From assembly GCA_051294905.1 (NCBI GenBank), contig CM119371.1, positions 24,678,001 to 24,742,000 on the forward strand: a stretch of DNA of 64,000 bases, read 5' to 3'. Positions 6,130 to 52,351 of this stretch are shown here, piece after piece. The stretch is from Botryllus schlosseri. Its lineage: Eukaryota. Within the stretch, counting starts at the first letter, position 1. Every line of letters begins with the position of its first letter. A program made the translations under genes and the position numbers. The notes beneath the pieces are model-generated. The model searched no databases. It was given only the letters and a program-made list of their open reading frames with translations, and was not told the origin of the DNA.

Positions 6130-6491
6130 GTTATCACATATTTGGAAACATCGGATGCACTGGGAACGGGATAATCTTCTGTTAGGCGGAATATATACAT
6201 TCATGACGATTGTATCGGCTATTTTTATTGCCTGTGCTTCTATCGGCTGGACTGCAGGCAATGATACTTCGCAAAACGGAATGCTGTTCTTAATAAACAT
6301 ACACACCCCTCCACCGTGAATGTCTCTGTCTTTTCTTATTAACGTGTACTGGGAAAATCGTGGGTTATATTTACTAATCAGATGCGTTTCTTGTAATGCT
6401 ATGATGTCAGGTAGTTTTTCTAGGCTCTCTATGTATTGCTTCAGTTCATTTATTTTCCTGTATACTCCACGACAGTTCCATTGACATATAA

Positions 6492-12544: not shown

Positions 12545-13843
12545 ATGCCACGATATTGCTGTGTACCTGGTTGCAAGAATCGGAGAGGTGGCCATTTATT
12601 TCCTACGTCACCAGTGCAGCTGAGGAAATGGACAGTAGCAGTTAAGAGATCTGACCCAAAAACGAAACAACTTTGGACGCCTGATTTGAGTAAAGATATT
12701 GTTTGCTATGGTCATTTTCTTCCGAGCGATTATGAGCCGAAAATGAAACTTAAAAGACTGAAAAAGGAGGCAGTGCCAAGTGTCTTTGAACATGATAAAA
12801 AAGCACCACTAAAAACTGCCAGGAAGACGAACAATTCAAACCCATTCAAACCAGAGCCTACTGAAATAATTTATTCCGGAACACATAGCGACCAGGAATT
12901 GACAACAGACTCGGAACATGTGGGCATTCAGTGCCAACTGGGTGCTTCGATGCCAACTTTCAGTTTACAAAATATCAAGGATGACCAGAAAGCAGTGCAG
13001 TACTTCACTGGATTTGATGGCATCGAACAGTTTCTGTTTTTTAAGGACATTGTAATGTACGATTTGCATCGATTGGAGTACACCTGTACATTGCTTTCAA
13101 ATGAAGAACAAGTTTTTATGACACTGATCAAGTTACGACAAGCTCTTGATCATCAACTGCTGGGCTACATGTTTCATGTCTCAGAAGCAACAGTTTCCCG
13201 CATCATTAATGCTTGGATCAAGCATATGTACAGTCTATTGTCAAACTTACCGATTTGGCCTTCAAAACAAGTGATATTGGATACCATGCCAGATGATTTT
13301 AAAAAACTCTATCCATCAATAAGAGTAATTATTGACTCTACAGAAATCCCAATTGAGAAGCCATCTGACATCCATGCACAGTCCATTACATTCTCAACTT
13401 ACAAGAATAGGAATACCATGAAAGTATTAATAGGTATTACACCCAAGGGTGCTGTTTCCTTCATAAGTGACTGCTATGGTGGATCCGTTAGTGACCGCAG
13501 CATTATTGAGCAATCTACTTTGCTGGCCGACGCCAGAACAATGTTTGAAAAAGGCGACAGTATCATGGCTGATAAAGGATTCCTAGTGCAAGATTTGTTT
13601 GCACCATTCGATGTAAAAATCAACACCCCTACTTTGATGAAAGGCATGACTCGGCTCTCTCAGGAACAGCGGCTAGATGATTGCGCGATCTCTTCAAAAC
13701 GTGTGCACGTTGAAAGGGTTATTGGTTATGCAAACACATTCAAAATCATTTATAATGTATTGCCTTACAATCTCCTGCATTTGGGAAATGAAATAGTCTT
13801 TATCTGCTTCATGATAGTAAATTTTAGGAAAGGCATATTTTGA
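12545..13843 (+). CDS. THAP-domain, HTH and DDE (Harbinger/IS5-like, DDE_Tnp_4-type) transposase, 432 aa, open frame
   Basis: THAP: MPRYCCVPGC..FP..W..VCYGHF..AVPSVF. HTH: LIKLRQ..LGYMFHVSEATVSRII. Catalytic motifs: IIDSTE, MADKGF, RVHVERVIG. Confidence 0.93.
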   Translation: MPRYCCVPGCKNRRGGHLFPTSPVQLRKWTVAVKRSDPKTKQLWTPDLSKDIVCYGHFLPSDYEPKMKLKRLKKEAVPSVFEHDKKAPLKTARKTNNSNPFKPEPTEIIYSGTHSDQELTTDSEHVGIQCQLGASMPTFSLQNIKDDQKAVQYFTGFDGIEQFLFFKDIVMYDLHRLEYTCTLLSNEEQVFMTLIKLRQALDHQLLGYMFHVSEATVSRIINAWIKHMYSLLSNLPIWPSKQVILDTMPDDFKKLYPSIRVIIDSTEIPIEKPSDIHAQSITFSTYKNRNTMKVLIGITPKGAVSFISDCYGGSVSDRSIIEQSTLLADARTMFEKGDSIMADKGFLVQDLFAPFDVKINTPTLMKGMTRLSQEQRLDDCAISSKRVHVERVIGYANTFKIIYNVLPYNLLHLGNEIVFICFMIVNFRKGIF

Positions 13844-17100: not shown

Positions 17101-18341
17101 TGGATAACAGCTGGCTTTTTATAATGTTTTACGTTTATGGGTGCCACCGCTTTGATTGCCTATCCCCTGGTCGTAACGCATCAGGATCGTGTACCAAACA
17201 CTTTCGGACGAGGGCAAATCGATTTGACTCGCTTTCGGGACGAGAATCCATATACAAATCGGGTCGGAGGCGCTGCAGCACTTTACAGAATTGCTGAGCA
17301 TGGAACGATTAAAACACCACAAGGTGTCATGCGAATGCTCTTTGTAGGTAGTTGGTCTGTGTATTTTTGGTATAGTCTTACTCGGCGCTTGCGTAATCTC
17401 TACCACGAAATCATAACGCATGCTACTAAGGATAACCTGATGATTGATTCGTGGCATGGGAACGATTCTTAGTTCGCGTACATTTTGTAAAATAATCATT
17501 TGAATAAAAAACAATGAATAAAACATTTGTTACCGCACTTCAAGTCACGCCACCGGCAAACCTCTCGCGGCACCTACGTTAAAAATCATTGTTTACGGGA
17601 AATTCATGTGGCCATCATGAACGTTGAAAAACGCTACTGTGACGTCATATTGATAACAAGTCGCTTGCGGCCCTTGCCCCACCACCCGATATTGTCACGA
17701 GCCGCCACTGATGAAAACATACGAAAGTTATTAACCTTCATGTATATAAACTATAAAGTAATACCTGAACTTCTTTGAGAAGGATGATGGAACGTTTGCA
17801 ATGTTTCTGTGCATGCCTTTGAAATTTGAACAGTCTTTGACTGCTTATAGTCCAGCAACATCAGAGCAAGACATGATAAATGCTTGCAAGTTGCATTTGG
17901 ACCGCTTCCTCCTGGGCATTCACATTCACTGAACAGGAGTTCCCCACTGTTCTTACAACATATCTTGCTCCAATAACTGACATGCCTCTTCATCGATGCT
18001 TTAACAATGGCAGTGAAATAGTGTAAAGTCTCAATCAATAAAGCTGAGCAGGCCTTCACGCACATCCCTTCTAACATCACTTTTCCTTTTTCCAACGATT
18101 TCACTGTCTTTGATCCTTCCATTCTCCCAAATTTAATAAAATACGCCTCAATAGAGCATCCTGAGAGTGGTGGAATTAATTCAAAATTCACTGGTTCATA
18201 ACCAAATTTGGGCCACTCTAGTAACTCTGTACTCCTGACGTACGACGTTCTACCAAAATCATCATTCCTGTCATAAGCGAGCAGCCTGCAATGCAAAAAG
18301 TAACATTGATCCAGAGTGTCATTACCAGTTGGAAAATCCAT
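14180..18341 (-). pseudogene. Spliced SWIM zinc finger plus YqaJ/lambda-exonuclease protein of the ISL2EU element (exons 18341-17765, 15166-14925, 14866-14180); in-frame stop at 14372-14374
   Basis: SWIM: CECPGGSGPNATCKH. YqaJ motifs: W..R..RLTASRFG, HG..YE, ATPDG, LEVKCPY, YAQVQGQM. GT-AG introns 17764-15167 and 14924-14867 join the ORFs in phase. The frame continues past the TAA as KLCYFVIYT..IEYIEFDPEF. Confidence 0.85.
15179..17710. mobile_element. 2.5-kb non-autonomous hAT element inside intron 1 of the YqaJ gene
   Basis: TIR CAGTGGCGGCTCG / CGAGCCGCCACTG; perfect TSD ATGAAAAC (15171-78, 17711-18); homologous to 48115-54067. Confidence 0.92.
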
Positions 18342-19548
18342 AGCTTCTCAACTTACGTAGCAGCCTCTAGAGGCAAGCTCACATGCTACAGCTTAGTTCG
18401 GTCTTAATCTGCACTTTTTCAAATATAGTTGCGTATTGCACCATGTAACTAAATGAACTTAGATTGTACCATTCTCACGGCGTCATATCTGATCAAAACT
18501 AGCTCTATATACAACCACATGTATAAATAAATGACTTTCATAACTACCTTTCTATAAGTTCCGCTTTCCTGCCACATGTCCGAGCATTCCTAATGCCCAG
18601 CTCTTTTTTGAGATCGTGCACCGTTCATGAAGAATAATCCGTCGACATTTTCTATTGCAATAGCCACAAGCTAGCTAGGATATCAAAATACAACAAATGA
18701 AGACGACGTTTATATTGGTATCCACTGTAAACAGTGGATCACTAGGACGAGGTTCTGGCGCCCCCAAGTGTATGAATGTCTCCCATTGTCACAGCTCTCT
18801 CAGGGCACGGAACAGGTCGGATAATTTTACACTAAACGATTATTTACTGCTCAATAATAATGGATGGCGAAACTAAATACTATATCCTTCGCCTCGGATC
18901 ACAGCACCCTATTAGTAGTCACTGAAATAATCATGAATCATGGAATCGAAGTATATCGAAACAAATGGTTTCCAAACTGTTTGACTTATCGCCCCATTAT
19001 CCAGGTCGACATTCATGTATTGGCGCCTAAAAAACGATTGGTTATAATCGTCGCAGTTTTTTTATTTCCGTAGTAGCCTACTCAATGATGTACCCGAGGC
19101 AGATATATCTATGGCAGAATATTCGTTCAACTTTAGTCAATATGTTATTTCAAACTGTATTTACGACATTGATATGCCGGATGTCACAGCCCAGCTATTT
19201 TATTATTTGAGTACAATCAATATATATATAACGACTACTGTCTGTAGGAGATAAGGGACTGTTACTGCAACATAAAATTTTGAATGTTTGGTAACCCGTA
19301 CCGTTTTCTGATAGTTTTACTGCACCTCATGATACTTGTGTAGGACGCGCTTGTGACGTCGATATCGGTGATGCAGAGTTTACATGAGTTTTTGCGAACA
19401 ACACGCGATAAAATTATTGACGCTTATAGTGTTCCGCTTCTCATAACCAATATCCACGCAAATATTTGATCGCCACAGGTACCTAGAAAAAACTAGTTCT
19501 TAATCACCAAGCGAATACTACGATCAGTGAAGATATCAAACTGCTGTA

Positions 19549-29213: not shown

Positions 29214-29904
29214 TAGGGATGGTGTGAACCTCTGAAAGGTTCAGGTTCGTATGAACGCGAACCTTTTTTAAAGGTTCCGTGTGAACGCGAGCGTGAACGT
29301 CATGACGTCACGCGACGTCATATTGCTAATTCCAGCCCTATATTTCAATGAAGTGATAGCCTATAATATTGTACACGATACCTAGCGACGACTCGGGCCA
29401 CATAACGCACGGATTTGTTGTTTTTGACACAGAAGTAAACATAAGAAGTCAAGATTGACGCCGTACGCCTGCCAGATTTTTTACATCAGAAAACGATATC
29501 AATCTCATTGATTGGTTGAGTAAAAATCATTCGCTGACTAAATGTAGTGTATTTCGCTCCTAATCTCGTGGGATTGCGGATCAAGCTCACATCAATTCAC
29601 TAACGGAGAGCTGGATATTTCGAGCAAACTTTTGTAACAAAGAAAGTAAATATTTTCAGATTATCGAGGTGCATGATCGTTTATTGTTGATTTTTTTTAT
29701 GCTGCCAGCGCCATGCATAGAGTGGCCCGCAGTTGAAATTCAAAAAGTTTCATACAGATATGTTATAATGAAGTGGAAATTGTAATATATGAAAAAGGTT
29801 CACAGTGCAGAACCTACCAAGGTTCGTTTGTGAACGTGAACCTCTAAATTTCCTAGGTTCACACACAGAACGCGAACGTGAACCTCGCGTTCACACCATC
29901 CCTA
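29214..29904. mobile_element. MITE with TAGGGATGGTGTGAAC TIRs (hAT-like)
   Basis: Perfect TIR TAGGGATGGTGTGAAC / GTTCACACCATCCCTA; subterminal GTGAAC repeats; TSD unclear. Confidence 0.85.
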
Positions 29905-30811
29905 TGCACGGAAGTTGCGAAGTCATAGCATTCAATTCAATGATACAATTAATTAAAGCAACTCCTACATTACGTCCAACGATTTCAAGGACGGACATTT
30001 TAGATCGGCTCTAAAGATTGATGAGCTACGCTAAATACGCAATCCATTACGTTTCCTTGCGGCCCATACTTTAAGAACCCCGGGCTTAACCATTGGAAAG
30101 ACGTGTTTCACCTCGGATTATGTCAAACACAAAAAAGTGAACCTTACTATAATTCAGCAGATCAGGAATCCATAAAAATAATATCCTATTGGGTTTACTT
30201 GTAATGACCAGTAATGTCGAAGCAATATTTGATTGATTTATAAAATAGTGGACCACATTGCCATCACAATTGAAAAGTGGAAAATGGTGATGAGCTCATG
30301 AGATCGCAATCAACTATACTCATGATGTCAAAAGGTGACTTAAGTCAAGTCGAGTAACGTTCCATAGAAATTGACTCGAATCCAGTTGAGTCAGGATAAA
30401 ATTTAAAATCGAGTCATTGCAAATTTGGTATACGCCTCGCTTGTTATTCTCCCGATGTTTTCAAATGCCTTACCTCCCATCATTGAGATTTATTGTTTAC
30501 ATAGTATTATGATTTTATCCAGATAATAAAACTTCCAATTCCGCATTTACAGAGATCAATAATAGTCACAATTACCCATTCATTTGTTTACAGCTCACTT
30601 CTGGTTGGTTCATAAAACGGATGTTTTAAATGGATACAGTTAATGGAATGGAGTATTTCGTTATCCATTTATATGAAGTGTTATCAAATCAGAAACCATA
30701 CATCATATTGATTGATATTTATTTGACAATTACATTGCAGAGACAACACTGACTCAAATTATCAACAATGCATAAGTGAATGATACCGAACTAAAATCCA
30801 GGCTATAGGCC
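29905..30811 (+). repeat. About 0.9-kb direct repeat, copy 1 (copy 2 at 32457-33363)
   Basis: Near-identical sequence at a constant offset of 2552, with only a few substitutions seen. Confidence 0.95.
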
Positions 30812-31282: not shown

Positions 31283-32456
31283 TAGCAATAGAGAAACATA
31301 GAGAATAGAGATGTTTATTCAGCCAACAGTCAAAAGCAGAATGCACTGATAATAGCCAGGTAACACTAAAGATTACTAAACAACGTACTTCAAAATTACA
31401 TGGTGATGACAATGATTGATTGATTGATTGATTTCTTGATTGCTATACTGCTGATATGTTAATAATCAATAATGGGGAAACGCAATATAATGAAAGTCAT
31501 AGTCAAGTCAGACAATCATGTGGTTGTAACAATGATATATACAATTGGGTTGAAATGATCAATTTCTTCTGCCAGTTTGGTAGGTAAATAAAATGATAAG
31601 AGAAACGTTCACAAAACCTAGTAAATGCAAGAAAGCGACACACTAAAATAATGGAGCGACAGTGACGAAACAGCAGTCCACTTCATGGCTCCTGAGAAAT
31701 GTGCCCTCTTAGGTACGCACGCACGTGTGCACTGTGCAATTGCTTTGAGCTGACATATAAAATATAAGTTGCGCACAAAAAATCCGAAGAGATGACCTTT
31801 TTTAGTGGTTACGCACTGTTGTCCAAGGGACCGCGCAGTGAGTAGGTGAGCGCTTGCTGCAGACTCGTCAAAATTAGAGGGAACCTTGCTTCTGAGCTAT
31901 ATGTAAACGGGGCTAAAAGCACGCATTACTCACACTAGAGTCCTTAATACCGTTCAACATCTATCATAGATATGCTGCATCATTTGAGCGGCTATATCTT
32001 ACAGCTTACTTCCTCCCCTGCAAATAACCCAGCGGGAGCAAACGGACCCCAGGGTCATTGGGTTTACCGATGACGTCATGATCGGCACACGAGTGTACCG
32101 TACCTTACCTTGGATGATCTGGTCATTTACCAGCGACATTACGATAAGTTCCAGCAGCGTTTCCAGCGTCGACCTCACAATCCCTCTCAATCTTACTGAT
32201 CTCACAACTAGTACGGTGACTTACCGTACTATTAAAATGTATACGTAAACTCTTTCATAGTGATCAAAGCCGGAGACAGATGTTAAGATGTGAGCAGAAG
32301 CACATATTTCGTAGCTTTATCTGATGAAGTGTGGACTTGCACATATTATGACACCACTGCGGCGAAAGATTTGGGTCGACTTTATGTGTTTGTCCCATAT
32401 TGCATCTTTGAATGCACAATTTTGTGTCCAAATCGATGCTTTCGATTTAGAGTGTA

Positions 32457-33363
32457 TGCACGGAAGTTGCGAAGTCAGAGCATTCAATTCAATGATACAA
32501 TTAATTAAAGCAACTCCTACATTACGTCCAACGATTTCAAGGACGGACATTTTAGATCGGCTCCAAAGATTGATGAGCTACGCTAAATACGCAATCCATT
32601 ACGTTTCCTTGCGGCCCATACTTTAAGAACCCCGGGCTTAACCATTGGAAAGACGTGTTTCACCTCGGATTATGTCAAACACAAAAAAGTGAACCTTACT
32701 ATAATTCAGCAGATCAGGAATCCATCAAAATAATATCCTATTGGGTTTACTTGTAATGACCAGTAATGTCGAAGCAATATTTGATTGATTTATAAAATAG
32801 TGGACCACATTGCCATCACAATTGAAAAGTGGAAAATGGTGATGAGCTCATGAGATCGCAATCAACTATACTCATGATGTCAAAAGGTGACTTAAGTCAA
32901 GTCGAGTAACGTTCCATAGAAATTGACTCGAATCCAGTTGAGTCAGGATAAAATTTAAAATCGAGTCATTGCAAATTTGGTATACGCCTCGCTTGTTATT
33001 CTCCCGATGTTTTCAAATGCCTTACCTCCCATCATTGAGATTTATTGTTTACATAGTATTATGATTTTATCCAGATAATAAAACTTCCAATTCCGCATTT
33101 ACAGAGATCAATAATAGTCACAATTACCCATTCATTTGTTTACAGCTCACTTCTGGTTGGTTCATAAAACGGATGTTTTAAATGGATACAGTTAATGGAA
33201 TGGAGTATTTCGTTATCCATTTATATGAAGTGTTATCAAATCAGAAACCATACATCATATTGATTGATATTTATTTGACAATTACATTGCAGAGACAATA
33301 CTGACTCAAATTATCAACAATGCATAAGTGAATGATACCGAACTAAAATCCAGGCTATAGGCC
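32457..33363 (+). repeat. About 0.9-kb direct repeat, copy 2
   Basis: Matches 29905-30811. Confidence 0.95.
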
Positions 33364-33536
33364 ATATTTCACTTGTCGCAACCCCATCTATATCATTCGG
33401 GGAAATTGGTATTTCTTTTATATACATGGTGAATGTGTATGTGTGCCTATATTACGGTAAAAAGTACGCCATGCCACCGTACAATGAATGGCGTAACTGT
33501 GAGTAACTTGGAAATAAACTGCCATACTTTACACAG

Positions 33537-33611
33537 AAAACAACCACCCATCGCGGTCCCCAGAAAGTGCAGCAGAAGTGTTCAAGAAAGATCCTCGTAA
33601 ACTAAAATATG
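33537..33611 (+). CDS. Candidate NLR 5' micro-exon (75 nt, phase 1-1)
   Basis: CTTTACACAG acceptor, G|GTGAGG donor, frame NNHPSRSPESAAEVFKKDPRKLKY. Confidence 0.5.
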
Positions 33612-34278
33612 GTGAGGAGCAGTCATATTTATTTTAATAAATTGAAGAGACTCTTGACAACACTTCAATGAATACATAGGTCTACATTAGGGCTATTCAA
33701 AAATGAGTTTTTCGTTTCAAATTTTAATGGCTGCTTGATAAAATATGATAAAGTTTTGGATACATCTTTTTGACATTTTTGTCGTAATGTTTTCATCATG
33801 TCGTGTCACAAGGCACTTAAATTTTTAAAAAATTGAAATAATATTTACTCTTGATCAAGCAATTATATTGCAATATACAATCGTCTAACGGTTTCAATTT
33901 TTATAGGCGGGTATGATATCAACGCATTTACCGGACATAACATTGCAAGAGAGTAGTCGTTGTTGTCATAAGCTAGTGCTGGTATAAATAACGAGAATGA
34001 CCAATGGTTTGCTGGTCGTCCTGGGAAGTCACTCTCATCTATAAATTGATGCTCTTTCTACATTCTTCCTTCATAGTAGAGTAGAAACTATAATTTTCAT
34101 TTTCTATTGATATTCGATACTGGAAGATCTGCTGGATGGGTATAGATTTACGCTGTTTAATACGCAATAGATTCAATCAGTTCAGACTTGGAAAATTCTC
34201 AAGTTCTCGTATTTCTCGGCACAGAACGAAATACCAATTGAAATCCACTGACACACACTGTTTTTTTTTTCAACATAG

Positions 34279-34377
34279 GACATGCAATATTGGCTGAAGG
34301 TGACAACGTCATTCAAGATTTCCGAAATGCTACCGTGAACGTTGTTGCAGGAGACCAGTACACGACGGTGATTAATG
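34279..34377 (+). CDS. NLR 5' exon (99 nt, phase 1-1): GHAILAEGDNVIQDFRNATVNVVAGDQYTTVIN
   Basis: Poly-T tract plus CATAG acceptor, G|GTAAGC donor, open frame in phase with the following exons. Confidence 0.7.
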
Positions 34378-35194
34378 GTAAGCAGATGTGGTCAGTAACA
34401 CGGAACTTATAGTTTTTACTAGAACTCGAGTAGGTTTTGCCTCATTGCACTGTACTTGCTAAGGTTATTATTATTAAAAGCAGAGTGGCCAATCATACGG
34501 CCAGACGATTTCGTCCCGGCCTCCAGACGATTTCATCCACCCCGTGAAGCCATTCTGAGTAAATGGAAAATTGTTGGTATTATGCAGCACATTACCAACA
34601 AAAGTTGATTCTTTTAATAAGAATAAAGTTTCTGCTAAATATAATCCCGCATGACCAGGGTCGGGCAACATACGGCCCGCGGTTATTTCGAATTCTATCA
34701 TCCAAGATACTGTTTTAGCAGTTTATAACTGAGTCAAATCGGCCAATAATGGTAATTTTGGCAATTTCGTTTGCGAATAAGCGTGTTACTAGAATAGAGC
34801 CCCTATGATCCCTAATATAATGCATCTGACTAATAACAAATCCTGAGAACGAGCATTTCAATCCAAGTTGAAATCGACACAGTGTGCGTTCAGGTTTTGC
34901 GGGGTAATTTTTGCTTACGCTTCGCAAGGAGTTTGAAACTAATGCTCGACACATAACAGCCTAATGATGACGGGTCAATCACCCTACTCATCGGCAATGC
35001 CATGATTGCTGGTTCGATTGTAAGGGTCTCATCTGCTTATTTTATCAGCTACGAAGTAGTGTCGCATATGCTTGACTGCCTGTCTTGATTTAAATATCTA
35101 TGCAGTTATTTTCAAAATTACAAAAAATATTCCCAACCACCTGACAATTTGTGGAGGCACGCTAATGTGCCGCGTCACACAGTCTGAGAATCAC

Positions 35195-35744
35195 AAGGGT
35201 TGTAATGACTCGAGTCCAACTCGAGTCACTATTTTCTGACGACTCGACTTGACTCGAGTCATTTTGGCAAAATTCTGAAATGACTCGACTCGACTTGACT
35301 CGAGTCATTGCTCATGACTCGAACCAAGTCATATGACTCGAGACTCAGACGGCCAAGACCGACATTTCATTGTTATTTCGAAGAATAGTAAAGTACCCAC
35401 CCTATTGGGATTTGGTCTATTGGTACTGGTACTTGAAGTACCGACCAGAAACTGCTAAAATGAGGAAAATTAGTATATTATGAATGCGAACCATTCGATA
35501 TCACCAAACAGCGTATTAATAAGTGGGTTAACAAGACTTCAACTGGAAACTGAGCGGTCGACACAATGACTTGGACTCGGACTCGTGTCATAACACCGTG
35601 ACTCGGACTCGACCCGCTGATCGTTGAATTGGACTCGGACTTGACTCGCTGCTGAATTGAAAATGACTCGACTTGACTCGAGTCAAAACTATAAAAGTGA
35701 GATTGACTTGTTTCTCGGAGCCTTGTGACTTGGTTACAACCCTG
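35195..35744. mobile_element. GACTCGAGTC-rich hAT MITE
   Basis: TIR AAGGGTTGTAA / TTACAACCCTG; perfect TSD AGAATCAC. Confidence 0.9.
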
Positions 35745-35823
35745 AGAATCACTGAACTAGACTATAAAATGCAACACACGATATGACCTGTATTACACAT
35801 AAACACAGCCATATTTATTGCAG

Positions 35824-35892
35824 AGACCAATGTGGTTAATCGGTTTGGCAATTCGGAAAGTAAATTGGATGCGCAGACGCACTTAGGAGCAG
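35824..35892 (+). CDS. NLR exon preceding NACHT (69 nt, phase 1-1): ETNVVNRFGNSESKLDAQTHLGA
   Basis: TTATTGCAG acceptor, CAG|GTAAGT donor, phase matches the NACHT exon acceptor. Confidence 0.7.
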
Positions 35893-36803
35893 GTAAGTTA
35901 ATATCAAACACTTGAATGGTTGATTAGGCCTATATGATAGTTTAAGGGACAAATATACTACTTATAGAAAGTAAGTGTTTACCAGTATATGGGAATTACA
36001 AGCAAAATGATACAGCATGTCGTTCAAAGAGGTGGTTAGTGATGAAGTACTCCTAATTCAAGCTTATTCTACCTAATTCAACTACTTATTAGAACGGTAA
36101 TATCTTAAAGTACTTCTACTTGACAGAGTTTAGTTTTCTATGCAAAATTAAGCCGAAAATGCTCAATTCTTTACATATTTGTGAATCTCAACTTCTACTT
36201 CCTCTTGAGTAGCAACTGCACGCTACTAACAACAATGACTATTTTGACCACTCTGGTTCAGTTCATAAATTGTATCCTTCACTGACTTCCCACTTACCTC
36301 TATTGGCTGCGGCTTAATGAAGGAACAGGGTAGATCCAAGTAGCTTTGAGCCCCAATTTACCTTTGTCACACCGACTTTACCTACGATCTCAAACAGTAG
36401 TCCTTGTCATCGAGTAAAAAGTTCACAACTAACGTGACGCGATGTACCCAAAGCCAATTATGGCCTACTCGACTCAGAGTCTAATCAGTTAACTCTTTGA
36501 ATTTCCTTACTCACGAAATTCTAGTATCTTGGTATTTCGATTATAGAATAAAAGTATGTCAATACCGTATCGACCAAATAAATATCAAGGTGCATGCTTT
36601 TTTCTTCTTCTGAGGCGATGTCGGAAGCCATCATATTGATGCATGCGTTGCGAAGGTGTGATGCTATACCTGAACGACGACAAGCCATACCATATACCTT
36701 TTTCTGTCAATGCCTACTAAAAGATCATAGTTGTGTTGTGAATATGGCACATAAGTAAACATGTCGAACCTGCACGATCATCTCATTTCTGACTATTTTT
36801 TAG

Positions 36804-37942
36804 AAATGTCATTTCTTGCAAAGACTAGGCTACATCTGCGAAACGAAGTTGGGGAAATCAAAATGCCTGCTCGTCCCACAACAATGGTGATAGATATGCA
36901 AAACGCTACAGACGCCAATCCAAGAAATGGAAGTCATGGTGCTAGCAAAACTATATTTGGTCGCGACGTTGAAGAAATCTCTCATGTCCAATTTCACGAT
37001 CCCTTGAAGGACGAAGTTCCCAGACATGTTATGATTCTCGGAGAAGCGGGGGCGGGAAAATCGACCATTTCAGCAATGTATTGTTTGGCTGTAGCCGATG
37101 GAAATGTTGAGACGCTGCGTAGTGTACAACTTGTTCATTACGTCCAGGCAGCCCACCTTCATAACCATAGTACCGCAAATGCCTTTGATCTCTTATTCAC
37201 CGAACAAATGACTTGTGATCCTATGACTGAGCTGACTGAAAGCGAGAGACGTGCTGGGGCAAAGTGGTTAAATGAGAATTCTGACAACCTGTTATTGACA
37301 ATTGACGGCCTTGATCAGTGCTTAGATAACTTTGCTGTGAATAGTCTACCGAAAACCGGTCAACAAAATAGTTCAAGAATCAGCAAAACAATTGCTAGAA
37401 TCATGGGCGGTAACATATGGCGTGGTGCATACATATTGACTACGTCGCGGTGGAATATTTACTGGAACTTTACTGCCGAACAGAAACCTAACAAAGTAAT
37501 CGGCATGAGAGGACTTGACGACGATAATTTAAGATTGGCGGCATCAGGACACTCTGTTGATGGTGATCTGATGATAGATCAACTCGTAGATACTTCGCCG
37601 AAATTATTGAATTTGTGTCGAAATCCCATGTTTCTCAAGTACATGACGAATGTATTCCGAACCAATTCAGAAAACTTGCCTGATTGCATTTCTGGTCTCA
37701 TGTCAGCATTTTTTCGTAATTTCTTTCGCTTGTCCTCTGAAAAGTATGGTGATATTACGAGACTTGCGTACCATGGGATGTTAAGAAATTTATTCGTTTT
37801 CTCCCGCTGTTACTTGGAAAATTTGGGAATCAATCCAAAAGAATTGAATGACTTCTTGTCTGCTGGAGCAAATCCGGAAAAAGATCAAGATATCTCCAAT
37901 TCATTTGACGATATTTTTGCGTTCTCCCATCAAACGATGCAG
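36804..37942 (+). CDS. NACHT NTPase exon of an NLR protein
   Basis: Walker A GEAGAGKST, Walker B LLLTIDGLD, sensor-1 ILTTSR, LCRNPMFL, and WHD FAFSHQTMQ. Acceptor TTTTTTAG at 36803, donor CAG|GTCAGC at 37943. Confidence 0.93.
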
Positions 37943-39769
37943 GTCAGCGACGTTTATGTAACTAAAATTTCCCAATTCGATAATTGCAAAGCTACCCGTT
38001 CCAAACATTGTGCACGTGGTATAAAATAACCAAGGGTAGGCATTTCTGGAACATCGTTGTGTCGCCATCATGGAGATTGACCCAACAAGTAGTACGGCTG
38101 ACCACGAAATTGTTCTTTGTGTTTGGTTTGGTTTAATTAAATTAATATTAATCACCCCTCTGTAAATGCTACCTCTAAACTGCCCACGTGCGCAAGTGCG
38201 CAGGGCTGACACGGTCTCTGCGCACAGAAAATCTAAGTTGCGCACGAAAAATACCCTTTTTTAGTCGCTACGCACTGTTGTCCAAGGGTCATGCGCAGCG
38301 AGTTGGTGAGTGTGCGCAGTCTCGACAAAAGTTAGAGGGAATATATTGCCCTCTGTAGACATGTTGACGTGTCTTCTGAAAGCAGTCGAAACCAACATCA
38401 CTGTACATGTTCACAACAATTCAGTTTCAGTGAGAAATTAGCATGGTCAAGTACAAGCAAGCATTGAATACCTGACATATTACTCTCTACTTTTAACAGC
38501 AAGCGATGCCAAACTTGGGTCCATTCAGTAAAGCATATTTGATATCTGTTCGAAAATGATCTTTTCAAAAAATTACTTCTGGCTATTGCACTATCGGTTG
38601 CAGACTTTACTTATCAGTTTTTTTGAACAAGTTATAATTTCTAAATTTGTAAATGATGAATTTTCGTAGACGTGTATATTTATTGAACTGTAGCCAAAGA
38701 ATGCTTGCTGACGACGTGTATTTTATAAAATGATTACTAACTATATGATTTAGAAAGATATAGGCATGCCATCTTCTTTACGTTTTTATAACCAAGCGAT
38801 TGATCACGACACAGCCGAAACAGTACTAATTGTTTAGCACCCTTTGTGCCCCCTTTGGATGAAAAAAAAATTGGGGCGCTTTAACCCTCATACCGCCTTT
38901 TTATGACGGACATTTCACAAATACTTGGAAATCACGTTTTAATGTGATGGGGATTGGTGCTCTTTATTTCGATAGTCGCGATTTTCAATTCCAGGATTGA
39001 ATTTTGTCTATATTAATGGTATTTGTACAAATCCTCCTCTCTAAGCCCACACCATCAGATTTATCGTTAGAGCTGGTGGAAGCTTCTTTGTTTTGTTTGT
39101 TTTCACATATAAACAGTAGCGCTTAGCGCCTATACGGTCATTTGCGCCATGACATTAATTTCAGTCCATCACCCATTGTAATGTTTCGGACGACTTACAA
39201 TTCTCGCTCTCACTCATCATCGGTCACTTTCGTTTTTCATGCGTCCAGAGCCTGAACTTTGCTGCCGACTTTTTGCTCGGCTTACCTTAACTCCGGGCTT
39301 TCGGAACACTGCTACGGCAGTGAAGTCAGCGATGTGGCGTCCAGACAAACCTTCTACACATATAAACTTAGTAGAGCCGAGACTCGTACTAACGCACACT
39401 GCGCCACTCGCTTCCCTAGCTGCGGGAGGTGCTGGCTTCGAAAATATATGGGATATCGAATTATCGTCTGTGGTGCCTGTTATTTATTACTTTGTTTTAT
39501 GTTGTTTTTTCGCGACCTCCTGTCTTCTATATAGTCAAAATATGTTGGAATCGTCCAAACGTACCAAGGTAAACCTGCATACGCTATTATAAATTGGCAT
39601 TTCTGCACGGGACGCATCATTTTCCTCTACGGGTTCCAGGGTCACATTTGTACTATGGGCTCAGATTGCAATCACGGGATTATTCCGCGGTGGTTTTATT
39701 TGGTAATAATGTGTCATGGCAAGGTCATGGAAGGTGCTGAAATGCCTATTTCGATGAAGAATGCGTATT

Positions 39770-40165
39770 ATTTTCCTAATAAATCGCGAAGGGATACTAT
39801 AGCTCTTTCGAGGTCGTGATTTTCCCGTGGTACAGGCAGGGGTCGGGAACCAATGGCTTCCAAGTCACATATGCCTCTTTTGAGTATAAGATATGGCTCT
39901 TTGCCAAATTTTAATTTTTGTACTGAATTTGTGAATATTGGAGCCACTTGTTGGTAAATTTTCATCAGGACCAGATTAATTATTCTCCTGGTAGTATAAC
40001 ATATCTTTGAGAGGTAAAGACAATGCCGTATTCAGCGTTAGCGACTCGTACCATCCTTTTGAAAATCATGAAATTGCTGCCGCGCCAGCAAACAATATTC
40101 GATGAACCCGACTCGAAATCTAGGATTGCACGATACGTTGATTCTTCAAAGAGAATAGTAGACAT
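39770..40165 (-). mobile_element. Highly degenerate LINE 3' fragment (CR1/L2-group-like C-terminus)
   Basis: KLKFGKEPYL...GSRPLPV...ERAIVSL resembles the FxxEPYL..SHxL..ERxC C-terminal motif; several stops. Confidence 0.4.
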
Positions 40166-40985
40166 AATGACGCCTGTAAGATGATGCAGATTTTATATAC
40201 GCATTGTCTTTCTGATCTACGGTGAGAAATGAACTGCCGTGAAAGTGACATTCACAATAAAAAACTCAAATTACTTGTCACTTGCAACCACTGACCCCAC
40301 GTCCCTGAATTAACATACCTTAAGCTGGGTATATATTGCTGTGGTGACCATGTTTGACTCCGCCTGCGCATGTGATCATGCATTCTCTCATTTAAAACGA
40401 GCATCACAACGAAAATATGTTCTCTTATAAGTGATGAAAGTCTCAAATTTTGTATGAAGCCTTTAACCTCATGATTATCAACCAAGACAACAAAGATATC
40501 AGTAACACCAAAACACGTGTTGACTGAAAAAAACGCTTGCTGTTATCAACGTCCGTTGGAAATGCTCATTGTCTTAAGCTCCGAAAAATATCACTCTAAT
40601 ACGGTGAAAAAGATGTCACGTTCAAAATATTTATTTAACTCAGGAATCGAATGTTCAAATACGGCAACCAGCATCATTAGTACGAGTGTTTACACTGTAA
40701 ATGTGTCGCAGACAACGAATCCCATGTAGATAGTTCGAATGAGTGATACAATGACGTCACATATTTGAAATTGTGACGTAACATTTAATTTACATGTATG
40801 GCTCTTTGGGAGTTGAAATGGTAAAATAGGGCCAATATTGCAGTTCGGGCGAAAAAGATTCCCGACCCCTGCATAGGGAAATATTGTTGATTGAAAAGTT
40901 TCATTTTTCCTCCATGTTGCGAAATCGGACGTGTTGGCCTCCAATATTCTTTCATTCTACGCGTATTTCTTGAACATGTGTCCAG

Positions 40986-41148
40986 GAATTTTGCTGCGCA
41001 CTTCATGTCGCTAGTCTCGACCGATCGAATATGAACAGATTCATTTCGAATGATCTAAACGAGAATGGAATGGAGTTGACTAGACAACTTTTTTACGGAT
41101 TGATTCTCAATGATAAAGTCACTAATCAAATGAGGAAGTTCCTGACGG
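40986..41148 (+). CDS. NLR winged-helix/HD2 exon (EFCCALHVASL...QLFYGL...)
   Basis: Splicing to the NACHT exon rebuilds the conserved FSHQTMQ|EFCCALH motif; G|GTAAGT donor. Confidence 0.88.
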
Positions 41149-41302
41149 GTAAGTTTATGTGTCCGTGTTATCCGAATGAGCTTATATTCTTCCATATATT
41201 TCACCGTGTTTTCGCTTGGGTCTTAGTGACGGTAGAATGCACTACTCACCTCCCCATGTTTCCAGAAAGGTGACAGTAAGATGCAATACTGTTTCTCTAC
41301 GA

Positions 41303-42533
41303 CTGTGGTTCCTAACATTTTTCACCCCGTGTACCAATTCGAGGTTTTATGCAGTGCTCACGTACCACCTACATAGGTTACGCGCGCCGTAGGCAGTCAA
41401 AAATGTTTTCACCGCGTTGAGCTGCCGTAGCAGCGAAATAGAGAATAAACTGTCCATTTTAAGGTGCAGTATATGATTTCTGTAATCGATCCATTTGGAA
41501 TTCTTGTGGTCAAATATATTTAAACGGAATTTGGTTAGGTAAGAAATAATAATTCCAATACTTTACGACTAGATAACTTCCCCGTAGGTCAGGGTTGGCC
41601 ATCCTTTTAGCCATTCACGCGGCCGCATGTTACCTGCTCATGTAGCCCATGGCCGCATTCCAGAGCATAGTCGTAATTAAGTATAGTTGGACGCCAAATG
41701 CCGACGTTAGAGTGTCTATGTCTGTTCCTGGTGAACTCCGGGCAAATCCATTTAATGATATAGGCTGGCTATAGGCTACGCACCAACATCGTGAGTGGTC
41801 ACTGGTGATATTATGGGACTGCACGAATTGCCGCACCGAGCGCGAAATTTATTGATTTACTAATGAATTTCGTGAATAATATACATAGTTTACATATTAC
41901 TATCAAACATTTATCCCTTCTCAGTCCATGGATGTGGTCATAGTCACCGGTAGAGTTGGTAGAGGGGGTATTTTCGAAGATTTAAGGAAAGTTATAAATC
42001 ATGATGCATCTTCGGGCGGGCCAATTATTATTAGCTACTTTGTTACATGCTGTTATATCTTGACCTCCCATCAGGATTGTCGGTATAGTTAGGTGTACAC
42101 GATTCCGAGTTGGTATTTCTATATAGGGCGTATCATTTAGGCTTACCTCTACTCTTCGAATCTGAAATGTGGGGCTCTAATTGCAAAGGGCCCTACTATA
42201 TTAAAATCGAAAAATGAAGACACTTGAATCGTGCCCAGCGCGAAGAAAATCTATCGATTAACTAAAATCTATCAAGAAATCGGGAGTAAATTCGTAAATT
42301 CAAATTTCATGCCGATGGCCGCATGCGGTCGCATCTGGGCCAGCCCTGCCGTAGGCCGTCATTGGCGGGATTGCCCCTACCCACGACGACGACGGCTTCA
42401 AAAAACTTTAACTCAACCCCAACTGAACTGATAACTCTATGCCGTCGAAAAAAAAAAATAATCTACTCGCGTACCTCCTGAAAGATGTTCGCCTACCACT
42501 AGTGGTACGCGTACCACAGGTTGGGAACCACTG
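41303..42533. mobile_element. hAT MITE carrying a nested hAT MITE (41590-42348)
   Basis: Outer TSD CTCTACGA at both ends, ending GGTTGGGAACCACTG. Inner CAGGGTTGGCC / GGCCAGCCCTG with TSD CCGTAGGT/C is an inverted relative of 57961-58748. Confidence 0.85.
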
Positions 42534-42718
42534 CTCTACGAAGATAATTACCCTAACTATTAATATGACCGGCATTTTGCTCCCTCGAATATCAGATTAA
42601 CCGAGTCCAAGCAAAATATTATAGATCGGTGATACCACCAATCCAAAGTAAACCTTACCTAAACTATTTTAACTATAGGATAATAGCTAAAATTATATTA
42701 GGATAATTTCTTATACAG

Positions 42719-42760
42719 GAACTGCCTTCTATACTCGGTCGAAGTTGACTATTTGCTTAG
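42719..42760 (+). CDS. Possible 42-nt NLR exon (phase 1-1), GTAFYTRSKLTICL
   Basis: TTTCTTATACAG acceptor and AG|GTATGT donor; optional because it is symmetric. Confidence 0.35.
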
Positions 42761-43012
42761 GTATGTTATATGCATTGAACATATTAGTTTGAAAGGGTAG
42801 AATCCGCTCATACCATGGCAAATAGCCACGTTTCACAATACTCTTTGTGTGATTTATTAGATGATAAAGTATCCCATCAGCAGCCCTGTAATTAAGGTTG
42901 ACGTCATACTATATGTTTGCGTGTAGAATTTGAACGGCGTTGCGCTTTCAAATGCAATAAATCGTTTCCCTTCATCAGTATTAACACTTTCATGGCCCTG
43001 TATTACTGGCAG

Positions 43013-43332
43013 GTCGCAAAACCCCAATCAGGGATTGTCGCGAGATGTTGTTCGAAGAACTTCTTAACATGGTAACTGATGGTACAATACGGAATATCTC
43101 AACTGTTCGTCTCCTGAACGAGTGCGGAGATCACACCATTAAAAAAATGAAGCGACACGTTCAACGAGTTATCATCAATTCGGGAGACCTGCTTCACACT
43201 GACCAAATTCTACTAATAACAATGATAAAACGACTATCTCCCCTTAGAACGACGTTCGTAGAGCAAATCGATCTTGATCCATCGATGATATTGTATGTGA
43301 AAGATTGTCACGAATCTGCTGATATTTTTGAG
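43013..43332 (+). CDS. NLR HD2/linker exon (GRKTPIRDCREMLFEELL...LLNECG...DIFE)
   Basis: CTGGCAG acceptor in phase 1, GAG|GTATGT donor in phase 0; overlaps ORF 43045. Confidence 0.8.
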
Positions 43333-44142
43333 GTATGTGAAATTCTATCGAATCAAGTTTTCGTAGGTAAATTTATATTTTATTCTTCAAAATTGTTTCT
43401 TTATGATATATTGCTTTCAATAAGCTTATATCCTGTAAAAAGGCTGGTTACGAGATTATGGATTCCGTGAAACAAATGCATTTCGCTGATGTGATGACAA
43501 TCCTAAACCGGTCGAAATTATGGTACGTCCGCCTTCGATGCGATGATGATGTCAAACTTTTATTTCTCATTGATTGGATAAAAAGATCACAGGTATTCCA
43601 TTTTACAATTTTCGTTGTTAGACATAGATAGGGCCATTGGCAAAGGACTATTCTATGAATCTGCAAATGCTGATATTTAATAATGGTTCGGCAGTTGTGA
43701 ATGGAATGACACTGTTTCCGAATATGGGTAACCCACGGATACCCTTATCGTTAAAATTGGCAATTGATTTAACAAAACCAAACACTGACAATATACGACC
43801 TATGCAGGCGGAATATTGGTATGGCTAGGTTTAGGACTTCTACAAGCCAGTGACCCAACCATATCCACGAATCCAGTAAATGATGACAATCTTGTAGTTT
43901 GGCATCTTTACTATAATGTCGGATGCCTACACCCTCTCCCTCCGTCTATCCTTTTGGATATTGTCTTACCAACTTTTTTGCACGTGTCACGCATTGACTA
44001 TAGTAGCCTACACAAGAAAGTTAACCTAGACAACCACAATATAAAAAAGTATGAAAATATCGTTTTCATACGACGGGAATCCACTTTCAGAACAAATATG
44101 ATATAATCTGGTTGATTAAAACATTATCTTCATCTAATTCAG

Positions 44143-44316
44143 ATTCACCTGTATAACCTTGGCTTGTTAAGAATAACGCAAATTGACACGCTGAAATGTT
44201 TGTTCAAATTTCTGTCGATACACTCATTACGAAATCTGCGTTTGAACATAAATTCTGTTATAATTGGATCACAATTCAAAGATGTTCTTTCATCTCGTGG
44301 ACCGATGACAAGGAAG
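44143..44316 (+). CDS. NLR LRR-type exon (174 nt)
   Basis: IHLYNLGLL...SLRNLRLNIN; phase 0-0; AAG|GTGAGA donor. Confidence 0.75.
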
Positions 44317-45348
44317 GTGAGAATTTCAATTATTCAATCTTACTACTAAATTGCACCATGTTGTATGTTTTTTTTTGCTAGTGAAAATATACCAAGTTGG
44401 AAGCGTCTGCGGCTTTTAGTTTAGTAAGCATGGGAGACTTCAATATTTATTAACTATACAGCAGACAGTAGGTCACAATATATTGACATGCAACGAAGTA
44501 ACTATTTCAATAGGCCCGTACGAATATGTTTATTATTTGTTACGTGCCCTAAATCTTCCAAGACGACAGCTCTTCCACAAAATCTGACAATTCTGATGAG
44601 AGGATAAAAATTTATAACAATATAGGATACATGCAATTACCAATATTATTGACCGATTCAGTCTTGAATGATCCCAAATTCTCGCGATTGGCGCAATTAG
44701 GCGATATAAACTCTCTACGTACACTGAGTAGAATGAATGTGCTCACACATACTGGTTAAAAAACCCATCCAACTGTTGGGTCTAGTGGCGACCCCCCGCG
44801 CAGTGTGGCGTATCGCCCTGTGGGGGCCCGGATTTTGTGGATGACCACTGACCAGTATAGCTGTTCTCCGATTTTTTCATGTGCCCCATTGTATTTGTAG
44901 TAGCCATAGTAGCTTACGTCCGGAGGTAGTGTGCAATGAGCAAGGTAGCACGATAAGATGCTTGGTTCGACTCTGAAACGCTTCTTCTCGTGATATTGCC
45001 AAAGAGAAGAATATTATTCGAGTGGGCGTGGTCGGTTAAATCCATGGCCTTCTGCGCGATATACTGTAAATGACTCTCGGCGGTAGCACGTTTATCTGGA
45101 CACGGCAATTTTACGTCGACGTAGCAGACTAACTACCGTAAAATCCCATGGATGCAATCACGAACATAATTAATTACTATCAAAACCCTTCTAATGTCAC
45201 TCTGTAGCACCATATACTTGCAAACAAACGGTGCATACATTATATTTTGGGTTGATTTCAATTTTGGAAAGTCTACCGGTCCGCCAGATATATTTTGAAA
45301 ATTTACCGGTCTGCGAGGTGAAAAAGGTTGAGAACCACTGCTCTAGAG

Positions 45349-46888
45349 CAGGGGTTCTCAACCCGCGGCCCGCCGACGATTATTTTGCGGCCCGCGACAT
45401 CTTTCATTATAAACTCAATCATTGCTGACACGGTATTGTAACAAATTAATTTAGATACTTAGCTCTTTGATCGCACCGTCCCTGTTTCGTTTGATTACTA
45501 ATTTTTGAATGCAGTGGTTCTCAAACTGGGAGGCGCGCCTCTTAGGAGCATGAAAGCATCTGAAAAGGGTGCGACCCTGCGGTCAACTGGAAAGAATTTC
45601 GCGCTGCGCGCAATTTGTCTTCAGTTCATAGTTATTTCTCTGTGTATAGTCCGAATTTCATATTTGAGAATTCTCTCATCAACAGTCATAACCTTCCATG
45701 CCATCAAACTAGCCATTTGTAGCATTCTGGTTGCATTTTGTTATATGACGATAATGGGGCTCGAAATTATTCTCTATCAAAAAGGGGGTGTGTCTGAAAA
45801 AGTTTGAGAACCACTGCTTTAATCTGCTCTCGTTTCTTGATATATGCTCGACTTCAGATTGTTATTGTTTTGAATCGGTATTCTGCTGGACTCTGGTTCA
45901 AGAGAATCCCGCTACGTAGTTGGACTGCAATTTTGAAGAGTGTTTGACTCACTGCGAACAGTTGTTGAGATCGCCGACAACGTCATAGACGCATCGTTCA
46001 AAATTACTTGGAATATCGCTAAATCCTAGAAATCTGCTACAGAAGGTGCGATTTCAATAAGACCTTAACATACTGTGCGAATATTTGCTGTTTCCGGAAC
46101 CTAGCAGCAAAGACAATATCACCTGACAAATTTCGAAGATACAGTCGTCTGATTCAATCGTGTCCACACGAGTTACGTCAATGTCAGTCGGTCGCATGTT
46201 CTGAAACACGTTGCCGCGTAGACTGCTTCAACCCAACCTCGGACAAATCCACCGACATTGCATAACTAATTTTCTGGTTGAATTTTATCGGAGTGGACCT
46301 GGACATATATGAAGAGGAAACGCTTGCTGGGCAAAAGTTGTGAGGGGGCCAGCGAAAAATATTAACTTGGAAAGCTAACTCTGTAACTGTTGATGTAGGG
46401 CCCCAGGCATGGAAGGAAAAGAGAATGGTTGATTGGTTTGCTCAGAAATGGCCCCGAACGCCAGACTTCCTCTCATATCACTCAGAGCTCAGTGTGATAA
46501 TGGCCTCTGTAACGCAGAAGTTACCTTAATTTTATAATTGCTCACTCAAGCATTGAAACAGAGAGTTCGGTTCTCTGGTGGAAGGGTTTCAAGTTGCATG
46601 TACCGACTTGGCAATGAATGCAATGCACGCTGCATGAAGGGATTTAATTGCGGCGCTGGAAGATATGTATTCTCACAATAAGCAGCAGCTGCAAACTTAT
46701 GAGCGCTGTCCATTGATTCTTAATGATGCATAAAAATGTACTAAATGCCCGTATACGAGTGGTAAATAGGCTACAGTAGCCTAAATTTAATTGTAGCCCA
46801 CAAATACACGGGAATATTGTTCTGCGGCCCGCAGCGTCTTTTGCTGTTGAAATGCGGCCCGTTACACAAGAGAAGTTGAGAACCCCTG
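45349..46888. mobile_element. Charlie/Buster-type hAT remnant with nested MITE (45512-45816)
   Basis: TIR CAGGGGTTCTCAAC / GTTGAGAACCCCTG; perfect TSD CTCTAGAG; minus-strand VHCIHCQ resembles the hAT CxxH motif. Confidence 0.85.
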
Positions 46889-51300: not shown

Positions 51301-52351
51301 GGCCTGATTCTTGCTTCATCTGACTCGTTACCAGAAGTTGAAAACCTTTCACAAAGCAAGCTGCGCCAAGTGTCACATTTATCCTGCGTTGTTGAAGAGT
51401 AAATACATGTGTTTTGCTCTTTTTCTGATTTGTATGATTGAGATTGCAGCATTGTAGGGTAATATACCGACGTGAGCGTTAAATATAGTATTAAGAAAAA
51501 TTCCGGCCCGCCAAAATGTTGTGCACTCTAAATTTGGCCCGCGACTATCAAAAGGTTGCCGACCCCTGACCTAAAGCATCACAAGTTGACAAGTGGTACG
51601 TCGCATCTTCGAAGACATATCGAAGCGTGTAAGAAGAATTGATCGCAGTTGAAGAAAGTTCCTTTCTTTCTTCCAACAAAAAAGTAAGCAAGAAATCAAA
51701 GGAGAAGATGATCATGGGGAACACTGATCGCCGGGTGGAGAATGCAGAAGTGCCGGTTTGCCGTGGTGTTGTCTCCTTTGTAGCTCATGATATGAGACCA
51801 CTGAGCTCTGTTGAGGGGAAGGCTGATGTCTTGATCGAAATAGGGGCAATGCATGGCAAAGTGAGTGCAGAAGACGTTTTGCCATCCAGATTTACGGTGA
51901 AACGTAAGTTGGATGAGCATGAGGAGGCTTCGTCTTTGAAGCAAAAGCTGTCAGAGGAACTAAGAGTTGCTATCAAGTCTTATGGGCTGGCTGGCATCAC
52001 CACAGATATGTGGACCGATCTAAAGGGTCGCAGTTCTATTAGCTTGACTGTCCATTTTGTCGGAGAGAACTTGACTCTCAGAAGTAATGTTGTGACTGTT
52101 CGGCAATTCACGGATACTAAAAAAACTGGTCTGAATATCAGACAGGCTATCGAAAGCATCGATTGGGATTGTTCGACAATGTTTTTGAATAACTACCTCT
52201 ACCGATATGGATGTTTTGGAGACTGGACAGGATTCTTCGGGTTATCTCGGAGTCTGGGATTGAGATCCCCGGAGTCGGAGGGACTTTGCCTCAGTGACTA
52301 AAGTTGTCGGAGGGACTCGGAGTCTCGAAAAGCAGTCTCCGCTCATCACTG
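48355..52351 (+). mobile_element. Internally deleted hAT (Ac-like) transposon with BED-finger transposase pseudogene
   Basis: TIR CAGTGATGAGC / GCTCATCACTG; perfect TSD ATCTATAT. The BED finger SDVWKDF..ARCQNC|..GTSHLRRHIEAC is split by an insertion. Also DMRPLSSVEG, LPSRFTV, and ITTDMWTD..SLTVHF (first catalytic D). Confidence 0.9.
49987..51568 (+). mobile_element. Charlie/Buster (GTF2IRD2-like) hAT remnant inserted in the BED finger
   Basis: TIR CAAGGGTCGGCAACC / GGTTGCCGACCCCTG; TSD ACGTAAAG / ACCTAAAG; fragments LIHQ, YGDVLY..VR and STFGSTY. Confidence 0.88.

Follow-up and report, generated by a model that had tools for sequence, protein, structure and literature searches.

A conserved mini-exon motif at the N terminus of a large NACHT gene family in Botryllus schlosseri and its possible role as an amyloid-like signalling tag

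The stretch of DNA analysed here (the window) comprises 64,000 nucleotides of the Botryllus schlosseri assembly GCA_051294905.1, contig CM119371.1, positions 24,678,001 to 24,742,000. The sequence is AT-rich (~40% GC), with the introns and many transposons of an animal genome, and its contig measures 41.8 Mb in the 495-Mb assembly that we searched. That assembly contains no mitochondrial COX1 gene. Its forward strand carries a gene for a NACHT protein of the NOD-like receptor (NLR) type, and a short peptide motif encoded by an early exon of this gene is the subject of this report. A preliminary description of the same DNA had proposed two well-bounded, in-phase exons ahead of the NACHT exon; their boundaries, phases, and quoted peptides were exact, and neither exon encodes a proline. 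The features of the gene, in window coordinates, are listed below.

33900-34060, + strand: promoter-like conserved block with a TATA-like box (TATAAAT) at 34040-34046 and long invariant runs in a four-way alignment with three paralogues
34136-34139, + strand: putative end of a mini first exon, the start codon and first base of codon 2 (ATGG, then gtatag), placed by paralogue comparison
34279-34377, + strand: exon 1 (motif exon), 99 nt, acceptor ag at 34277-78, donor gtaag at 34378, phase 1 in and out
35180-35720, no strand assigned: repeat like a miniature inverted-repeat transposable element (MITE) with GACTCGAGTC-type palindromes, inside intron 1 and outside the gene product
35824-35892, + strand: exon 2 (variable linker), 69 nt, acceptor ttattgcag, donor gtaagt at 35893, phase 1-1
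36804-37942, + strand: NACHT exon, preceded by ttttttag (a pyrimidine run), starting in phase 1, donor at 37943, ending ...FSHQTMQ in phase 0
40986-41148, + strand: predicted next exon (EFCCALHVASL...RKFLT), phase 0 to 1, cag acceptor, donor gtaag after G, in a block shared with the 24.16 Mb paralogue
43013-43332, + strand: predicted further exon (RKTPIRDCREMLFEELL...ADIFE) with an uncertain 3' end (other donor at 43367), in a conserved block at 42912-43613

Exon 1 encodes (G)HAILAEGDNVIQDFRNATVNVVAGDQYTTVIN, of which AILAEGDNVIQDFRNATVNVVAGDQ is the conserved core, and exon 2 encodes (E)TNVVNRFGNSESKLDAQTHLGA. The NACHT exon holds a conserved pre-NACHT stretch (FLAKTRLHLRNEVGEIKMPARPTTMVIDMQ), a Walker A sequence, the NACHT domain, and a winged-helix region. 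The Pfam NACHT model (PF05729; cut-off 26.7 bits) matched residues 90-236 of its 424-residue open frame at 45.8 bits (E 7.4e-12), and the P-loop GxxxxGK(S/T), present as GEAGAGKST, recurs in paralogues L042 and L044 and in relatives P0018 and P0019. A search with the NACHT exon returned one named relative, a Death-Death-NACHT protein of Styela clava (P0001; 29% identity over 81% of the exon), and two further relatives of similar length. The Pfam score agrees with the earlier reading of this locus as an animal NACHT gene, and the Styela relative hints at a genome of the sea-squirt type. Among the listed paralogues of the NACHT exon are copies 94-95% identical to it and many others at 24-30%; within the window's own clade the pre-NACHT stretch is conserved as FLAKT(R/K)LHLR.EVGEI.MPARPTTM(V/M)IDMQ. 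A segmental duplicate that is 91% identical, in introns as well as exons, is the closest paralogue. When the two conserved frames downstream of NACHT (40986-41148 and 43013 onward) were compared with Pfam, no repeat family matched at E<=1. Phase, splice signals, and paralogue conservation together suggest that exon 1, exon 2, and the NACHT exon are joined in one message.

The preliminary description had set conservation of the motif in paralogues as a test beforehand, and the genome passed it strongly. The exon-1 peptide gave 116 matches at E<=10, 27 of them at E<0.001, and none contained a stop codon; against the six-frame translation of the window, a profile of the motif found a single site at 73.8 bits, the next best reaching 6.4 bits. 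Twenty-six copies could be aligned without gaps at 53-97% identity, with the consensus xAxLAEG(D/E)xVxQxFxNxTVNVVAGDQ. Five columns are invariant in these copies (A2, L4, A5, V19, and G24) and eight more are at least 90% conserved (V10, Q12, F14, N16, N20, V21, D25, and Q26).

This conservation is found at the level of protein. Of 29 paralogous loci, 27 have an AG positioned exactly 2 nt ahead of the first complete codon; the two that lack the acceptor carry an in-frame ATG four codons upstream instead. Three to four synonymous codons are used at the invariant residues, all four in the case of invariant A, V, and G. Among eight distant paralogues, pairwise differences over the 26 exon codons amounted to 111, 98, and 258 at codon positions 1, 2, and 3, whereas over the 14 codons before the acceptor the same copies differed at 176, 134, and 134 positions, with in-frame stops upstream in four of the eight. 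Because the excess at third positions is present inside exon 1 and absent upstream of it, the exon starts at the acceptor and is kept as protein by purifying selection; judged by this codon pattern, exon 1 is established as a real coding exon.

The preliminary description had extended the motif from the exon-1 peptide into exon 2, as far as ETNVVNRFGN. The exon-1 part of that claim stands and the exon-2 part does not. Two paralogues keep the splice sites and frame of exon 2, one of them (at 24.16 Mb) with an in-frame 3-nt indel, but that paralogue reads EIRVANLPGT, proline included, in place of ETNVVNRFGN. Only the 91%-identical copy retains the exon-2 peptide, and the motif profile gives it just 1.9 bits. 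By this comparison exon 2 is a genuine exon, yet a variable linker outside the motif. We had considered it as a second copy of the motif, and rejected this on the same low profile score and the freedom of its sequence to vary in paralogues; a second pseudo-repeat in the NACHT exon (MVIDMQNATDAN) was rejected as well, since its NAT is not kept in paralogues. Subfamilies with a longer motif exon show a Glu/Pro/Ser-rich variable stretch after the motif. The paralogue at C9:22614434 has a longer, one-exon form of the peptide.

As exon 1 opens in phase 1, further sequence must lie upstream of it. Conservation extends over the 400 nt before exon 1 in three paralogues, including two with only ~72-73% identity there, and the block at 33900-34060 within this region is probably promoter-like in function. 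About 140 nt before exon 1 and about 90 nt past the TATA-like box, all copies compared conserve ATG(GAT)G followed by GT: the sequence is ATGG followed by GTATAG in the window and in the paralogue closest to it, at 23.44 Mb, and ATGGATG followed by GTGG(G/A) in two distant paralogues (24.16 and 23.76 Mb). Both forms end in phase 1, so either supplies the phase that exon 1 requires. We infer that the protein begins Met-Gly-His-Ala-Ile-Leu (or Met-Asp-Gly-His...); the exon-1 peptide would then start at residue 2-3, and the motif would occupy residues 3-28. The predicted product would then run from the Met (or Met-Asp) plus one base of the mini exon through the 26-residue motif, a variable linker of ~30 residues from exon 2, and the pre-NACHT stretch to the NTPase. 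In the GSAILAEG subfamily, a conserved ITII.C.LG translation suggested upstream coding sequence such as a signal peptide; this candidate was rejected, as it shows no third-position excess and has in-frame stops in four of eight copies.

Across the genome, exon 1 is tied to NACHT exons. For at least 74 of the 116 motif matches, a listed NACHT exon follows on the same strand no more than 30 kb downstream (median distance 7.5 kb), and of the 147 distinct NACHT places in two lists of matches, at least 69 have a motif upstream. Ahead of NACHT we found no six-helix death fold: no Pfam family matched the exon-1 and exon-2 frames, and no helices were predicted in the motif. None of the 116 Death-domain exons listed, and none of the 19 TIR_2 exons listed, comes within 30 kb of a motif match (116 matches compared). 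Of the caspase open reading frames (ORFs) listed, a single one is that close to a motif; it is on the opposite strand and is a member of a multi-copy ORF. Since the motif matches are tied to NACHT and none stands near a listed Death exon, we regard the motif as the N-terminal module of a large NACHT family without a death-fold domain; a signalling module shared by this lineage-specific family is the best explanation for what exon 1 encodes.

In five cases, two motif matches stand less than 5 kb from each other: C1:11439227/11442320, C1:11609749/11612247, C1:11762642/11763794 (L028), C3:1405899/1409792, and C3:1918229/1922411 (L013, L050). In the two pairs that we read, both motif exons are on the same strand upstream of a single NACHT exon, both have the phase-1 start with ag before G, and the two belong to different subfamilies. 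Such paired exons could encode tandem motifs within one protein, comparable to the repeat pair of HET-s, or serve as alternative first coding exons.

Signalling by animal NLRs is generally ascribed to death-fold domains. Fungal HET-s, PP, and sigma motifs, bacterial BASS motifs, and the animal RIP homotypic interaction motif (RHIM) act by templated amyloid-like assembly. According to Dyrka et al. (bioRxiv 10.1101/2020.01.06.895854), NLR-associated amyloid signalling motifs are ~25 residues long with conserved G/N/Q and a hydrophobic pattern; they are rich in Q/N/G/V/I, poor in K/P/L, and located within an N-terminal NLR extension of 10-150 residues. The exon-1 motif has a core of 25-26 residues, in which Q+N+G+V+I make up 47.5% (27.2% in the NACHT exon) and K+P+L 6.0% (17.7% in the NACHT exon), with no proline in 650 core residues. 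In the predicted gene model, the N-terminal extension measures ~130 residues before the Pfam NACHT start, and the motif core begins at residue 3-4. Conservation alternates along the core (V10, Q12, F14, N16, T18, N20, V22), both faces are fixed in TVNVVAGDQ, and Gly, Asp, Asn, and Gln occupy the likely turns, EG(D/E)N and AGDQ. An AlphaFold2 monomer prediction from a 17-sequence alignment had a mean predicted local distance difference test score (pLDDT) of 51.8, with no residue reaching 70 and no helix; given this low score and the lack of helix or fold, the module is taken to be non-globular. The earlier description of a short, beta-prone, N/Q/G/V-rich front peptide placed like the fungal and bacterial NLR motifs therefore holds for composition and N-terminal position.

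Because the traits of the motif match these listed traits, we rank templated cross-beta assembly first among the readings considered, at a probability of roughly 0.35. Under such a mechanism, oligomerisation of the NACHT domains would bring the N-terminal peptides together, the gathered peptides would assemble into a stacked, amyloid-like cross-beta core, and this core would recruit or template a partner carrying the same motif. The motif would thereby take the place held by a death-fold domain in other animal NLRs. If this is correct, paralogues with two motif exons could make two-layer HET-s-like nuclei or choose between alternative tags. The preliminary description had proposed an NLR that signals by amyloid templating, and that interpretation appears partly supported by the match in traits.

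Compared with the fungal HET-s/HRAM, PP, and sigma motifs and bacterial BASS1-10, the B. schlosseri architecture is alike in having a ~25-residue motif that opens a NACHT/STAND protein at its extreme N terminus and leads into a flexible linker, with conserved G/N/Q, a hydrophobic pattern, an N/Q/G/V-rich composition with little K/P/L, and no other effector domain. It differs in having no Pfam-detectable sequence relationship to them and no effector gene with a C-terminal copy of the motif found here; the host is an animal, and dozens of receptors share one motif in place of matched gene pairs.

The nearest animal counterpart is in the amphioxus Branchiostoma floridae, which has a large group of RHIM proteins, one of them (BF82280) with a RHIM-NACHT-repeats architecture (Kajava et al. 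2014, PMC4262963). BF82280 is also an animal NACHT protein with a short non-globular motif at the usual death-fold position. The RHIM-NACHT build has thus been known in amphioxus since 2014, and the architectural idea is not new. The preliminary description had contrasted amyloid motifs with the death folds usual in animal NLRs; the absence of a death fold ahead of the window's NACHT domain fits, but to say that animal NLRs lack such motifs was too strong in view of the amphioxus protein. Kajava et al. also state that tunicates appear to lack RHIMs, and PMC12119088 that a RIPK1 homologue was not found in tunicates. The tetrad defining the RHIM is (V/I)-Q-(V/I/L/C)-G (PMC9444067), and the shared signature is given as G-phi-Q-phi-G in bioRxiv 10.1101/2020.01.06.895854. 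Unlike a RHIM, the exon-1 motif has neither the tetrad nor this signature in all 26 copies, and the Pfam RHIM model is silent on it.

Other ascidian NLRs offer a further comparison. The Styela clava protein resembles ours in its related NACHT domain and in belonging to a chordate-invertebrate NLR expansion; it differs in its Death domains, of which none was found here by Pfam or among the listed Death exons within 30 kb. PMC11508797 describes ascidian NLRs as 'NLRC lacking the N-terminal domain'. Set against that wording, the N terminus here does carry a conserved motif, encoded in mini-exons that domain scans and gene predictors can miss. We found no published description of the exon-1 motif in the literature on NLR amyloid motifs, RHIM-NACHT proteins, and ascidian or tunicate NACHT genes, supplementary files not covered. 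Both the motif family and its occurrence in a lineage without RHIMs seem to be undescribed.

The motif profile, run against 1.84 billion proteins, gave 16 matches, none of them an annotated full-length protein. Eleven are short open frames with the motif, four are long bacterial-type Ig-repeat proteins that match piecemeal, and one (P0017) is a low-complexity repeat. A search of the ESM Atlas returned unnamed viral clusters only, with a recognition value under the useful range. The Pfam RHIM model had no match in the genome at E<=1, which is weak evidence, since the control also matched nowhere.

A number of results weigh against assembly into amyloid. The core contains conserved acidic residues (E6, D/E8, and D25). 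None of the 26 copies matches any Pfam family at E<=10, RHIM (PF12721) included, and neither the tetrad (V/I)-Q-(V/I/L/C)-G nor G-phi-Q-phi-G occurs in the 26 and 17 sequences of two alignments, in keeping with the earlier statement that this is not a canonical RHIM. A sequence search of the PDB gave one chance match (E=1.9) and none better. All 29 copies that we read are N-terminal-type exons. For the four motif copies without a listed NACHT exon, the 9 kb downstream hold transposon ORFs, no NACHT, and no clear effector. The preliminary description had proposed to look for the motif on a partner; no partner or effector bearing the motif, at its C terminus or otherwise, adjacent or elsewhere, was found among the four NACHT-less copies, the Death, TIR, and caspase matches listed, and the loci read. 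One well-conserved motif on dozens of receptors could also fit a common adaptor, equally without amyloid.

A last point of this kind comes from RNA. Reads from four raw-read runs under the same species label, sampled at 6-13%, were aligned to positions 33300-46300. In these runs, no depth was recorded on the mini exon, exon 1, exon 2, or the greater part of the NACHT exon, and no read joined two exons over the aligned region; one run reached a depth of <=0.26 at 37206-38073. Nearly all reads on this 13-kb stretch fall on the MITE-like element at 35180-35720, with many loose ends and internal joints. Given the many loose ends, these reads are taken to stem from other, transcribed copies of the element. 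Inclusion of the two exons in the message is supported by phase, splice signals, and paralogue conservation, and not by these four sampled runs, which show neither depth nor joints.

Downstream of two of the NACHT-less motif exons, on the same strand, we noted by eye a RING-like cysteine-rich frame (L045, C3:16431000-16440300, -) and NHL-repeat-like frames beyond a Gypsy-type insertion (L048, C8:3917600-3926900, +). Both ideas were rejected, as no link to the motif exon could be made.

The strongest competitor to amyloid-like templating is a docking peptide that never forms amyloid. It would bind one folded adaptor or enzyme common to the family, for instance as a strand added to a beta-sheet, with receptor oligomerisation raising local avidity. 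The occurrence of the same well-conserved motif on at least 74 receptor genes suits one shared partner, and the prediction of the motif as disordered alone in AlphaFold2, the lack of likeness to known amyloid motifs in the PDB, Pfam, and RHIM pattern searches, and the absence of a second protein class with the motif among the matches listed and loci read are all compatible with docking. Nevertheless, a linear docking motif would seldom need as many as 26 constrained residues, TVNVV is fixed on both faces of the strand, and composition and position match the description of amyloid signalling motifs by Dyrka et al. We consider docking possible, if a tentative explanation.

The motif may instead act within its own protein, packing on the NACHT domain or the C-terminal region for auto-inhibition and opening like a lid on activation. 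A flexible, variable linker follows the motif, a second conserved stretch stands directly before NACHT, and, as far as seen among the NACHT matches listed, the motif co-occurs with NACHT exons only. However, across subfamilies the motif (53-97% identical) is better conserved than the NACHT exons that it would bind, many of which are 24-30% identical, and this argues for a common external partner or for self-association. An intramolecular role consequently seems unlikely to us.

Still less probable is a targeting, lipidation, or turnover signal, such as N-myristoylation after Met-Gly, a membrane-binding strand, or a degron. It would suit the predicted Met-Gly start of the window's protein and the position of the motif at the extreme N terminus, but the constrained part lies 10-26 residues in, away from the tip. 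Two distant paralogues read Met-Asp-Gly, which rules out lipidation of Gly-2 there, and what follows Gly (His, or Ser-Ala-Ile-Leu) appears to depart from the N-myristoylation pattern. Finally, it is very improbable that exon 1 stands outside the mature message, as a decayed or never-used exon or a repeat travelling with NACHT duplications: the want of RNA reads in the sampled runs and the 91%-identical segmental duplicate, introns and all, would allow it, but distant copies keep the frame, acceptor, and peptide while third codon positions and the flanking intron drift, and no stop occurs in 116 matches.

These results give a large NACHT family of the ascidian type a conserved N-terminal module. 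It is encoded in mini-exons that escape domain scans, and it shows the features typical of amyloid tags on fungal and bacterial NLRs. Were the motif to form amyloid, it might be the first animal amyloid signalling motif unrelated to RHIM, a tunicate-specific tag of ~26 residues that lets at least 70 NACHT receptors seed cross-beta assembly and template a partner; we put this forward as a doubtful, though not negligible, proposition. Prion-like signal transfer by NLRs would then extend beyond fungi, bacteria, and the RHIM lineage, having arisen or persisted independently in chordate relatives, and the peptide would be a tractable one for studying receptor-effector coupling without death domains. 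If the motif is a plain docking peptide, it provides a handle for finding the adaptor of the family.

Several minor features of the window and genome were recorded. Directly upstream of the gene, a tandem duplication of ~2.5 kb (29793-30810 and 32315-33292) carries identical open frames at an offset of 2552 nt. Long open frames judged by eye to be transposon-like lie at 2241-7814 (-), 12497-13843 (+), 14372-15221 (-), 17751-18347 (-), and 51633-52301 (+); by eye, they include LINE-type endonuclease/reverse transcriptase/RNase H with a zinc-knuckle ORF1 (LINE, long interspersed nuclear element), a THAP-plus-DDE transposase, and a YqaJ-like exonuclease frame, among others.

Elsewhere in the genome, at least nine places pair a Death-like exon with a 257-residue caspase-like frame at a distance of ~15-21 kb, and the scores hardly differ from one place to the next: C1:36371542/36392876, C4:18159766/18143713, C13:24726282/24710226, C16:14446023/14429888, C2:30487392/30503021, C11:4507177/4522833, C3:8197890/8213540, C1:7939904/7955522, and C10:14694044/14677975. 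Many other Death-like exons form inverted pairs ~10 kb apart. The recurrent Death/caspase pairs look as if they belong to a large multi-copy element, or to several such elements, with cell-death domains as cargo.

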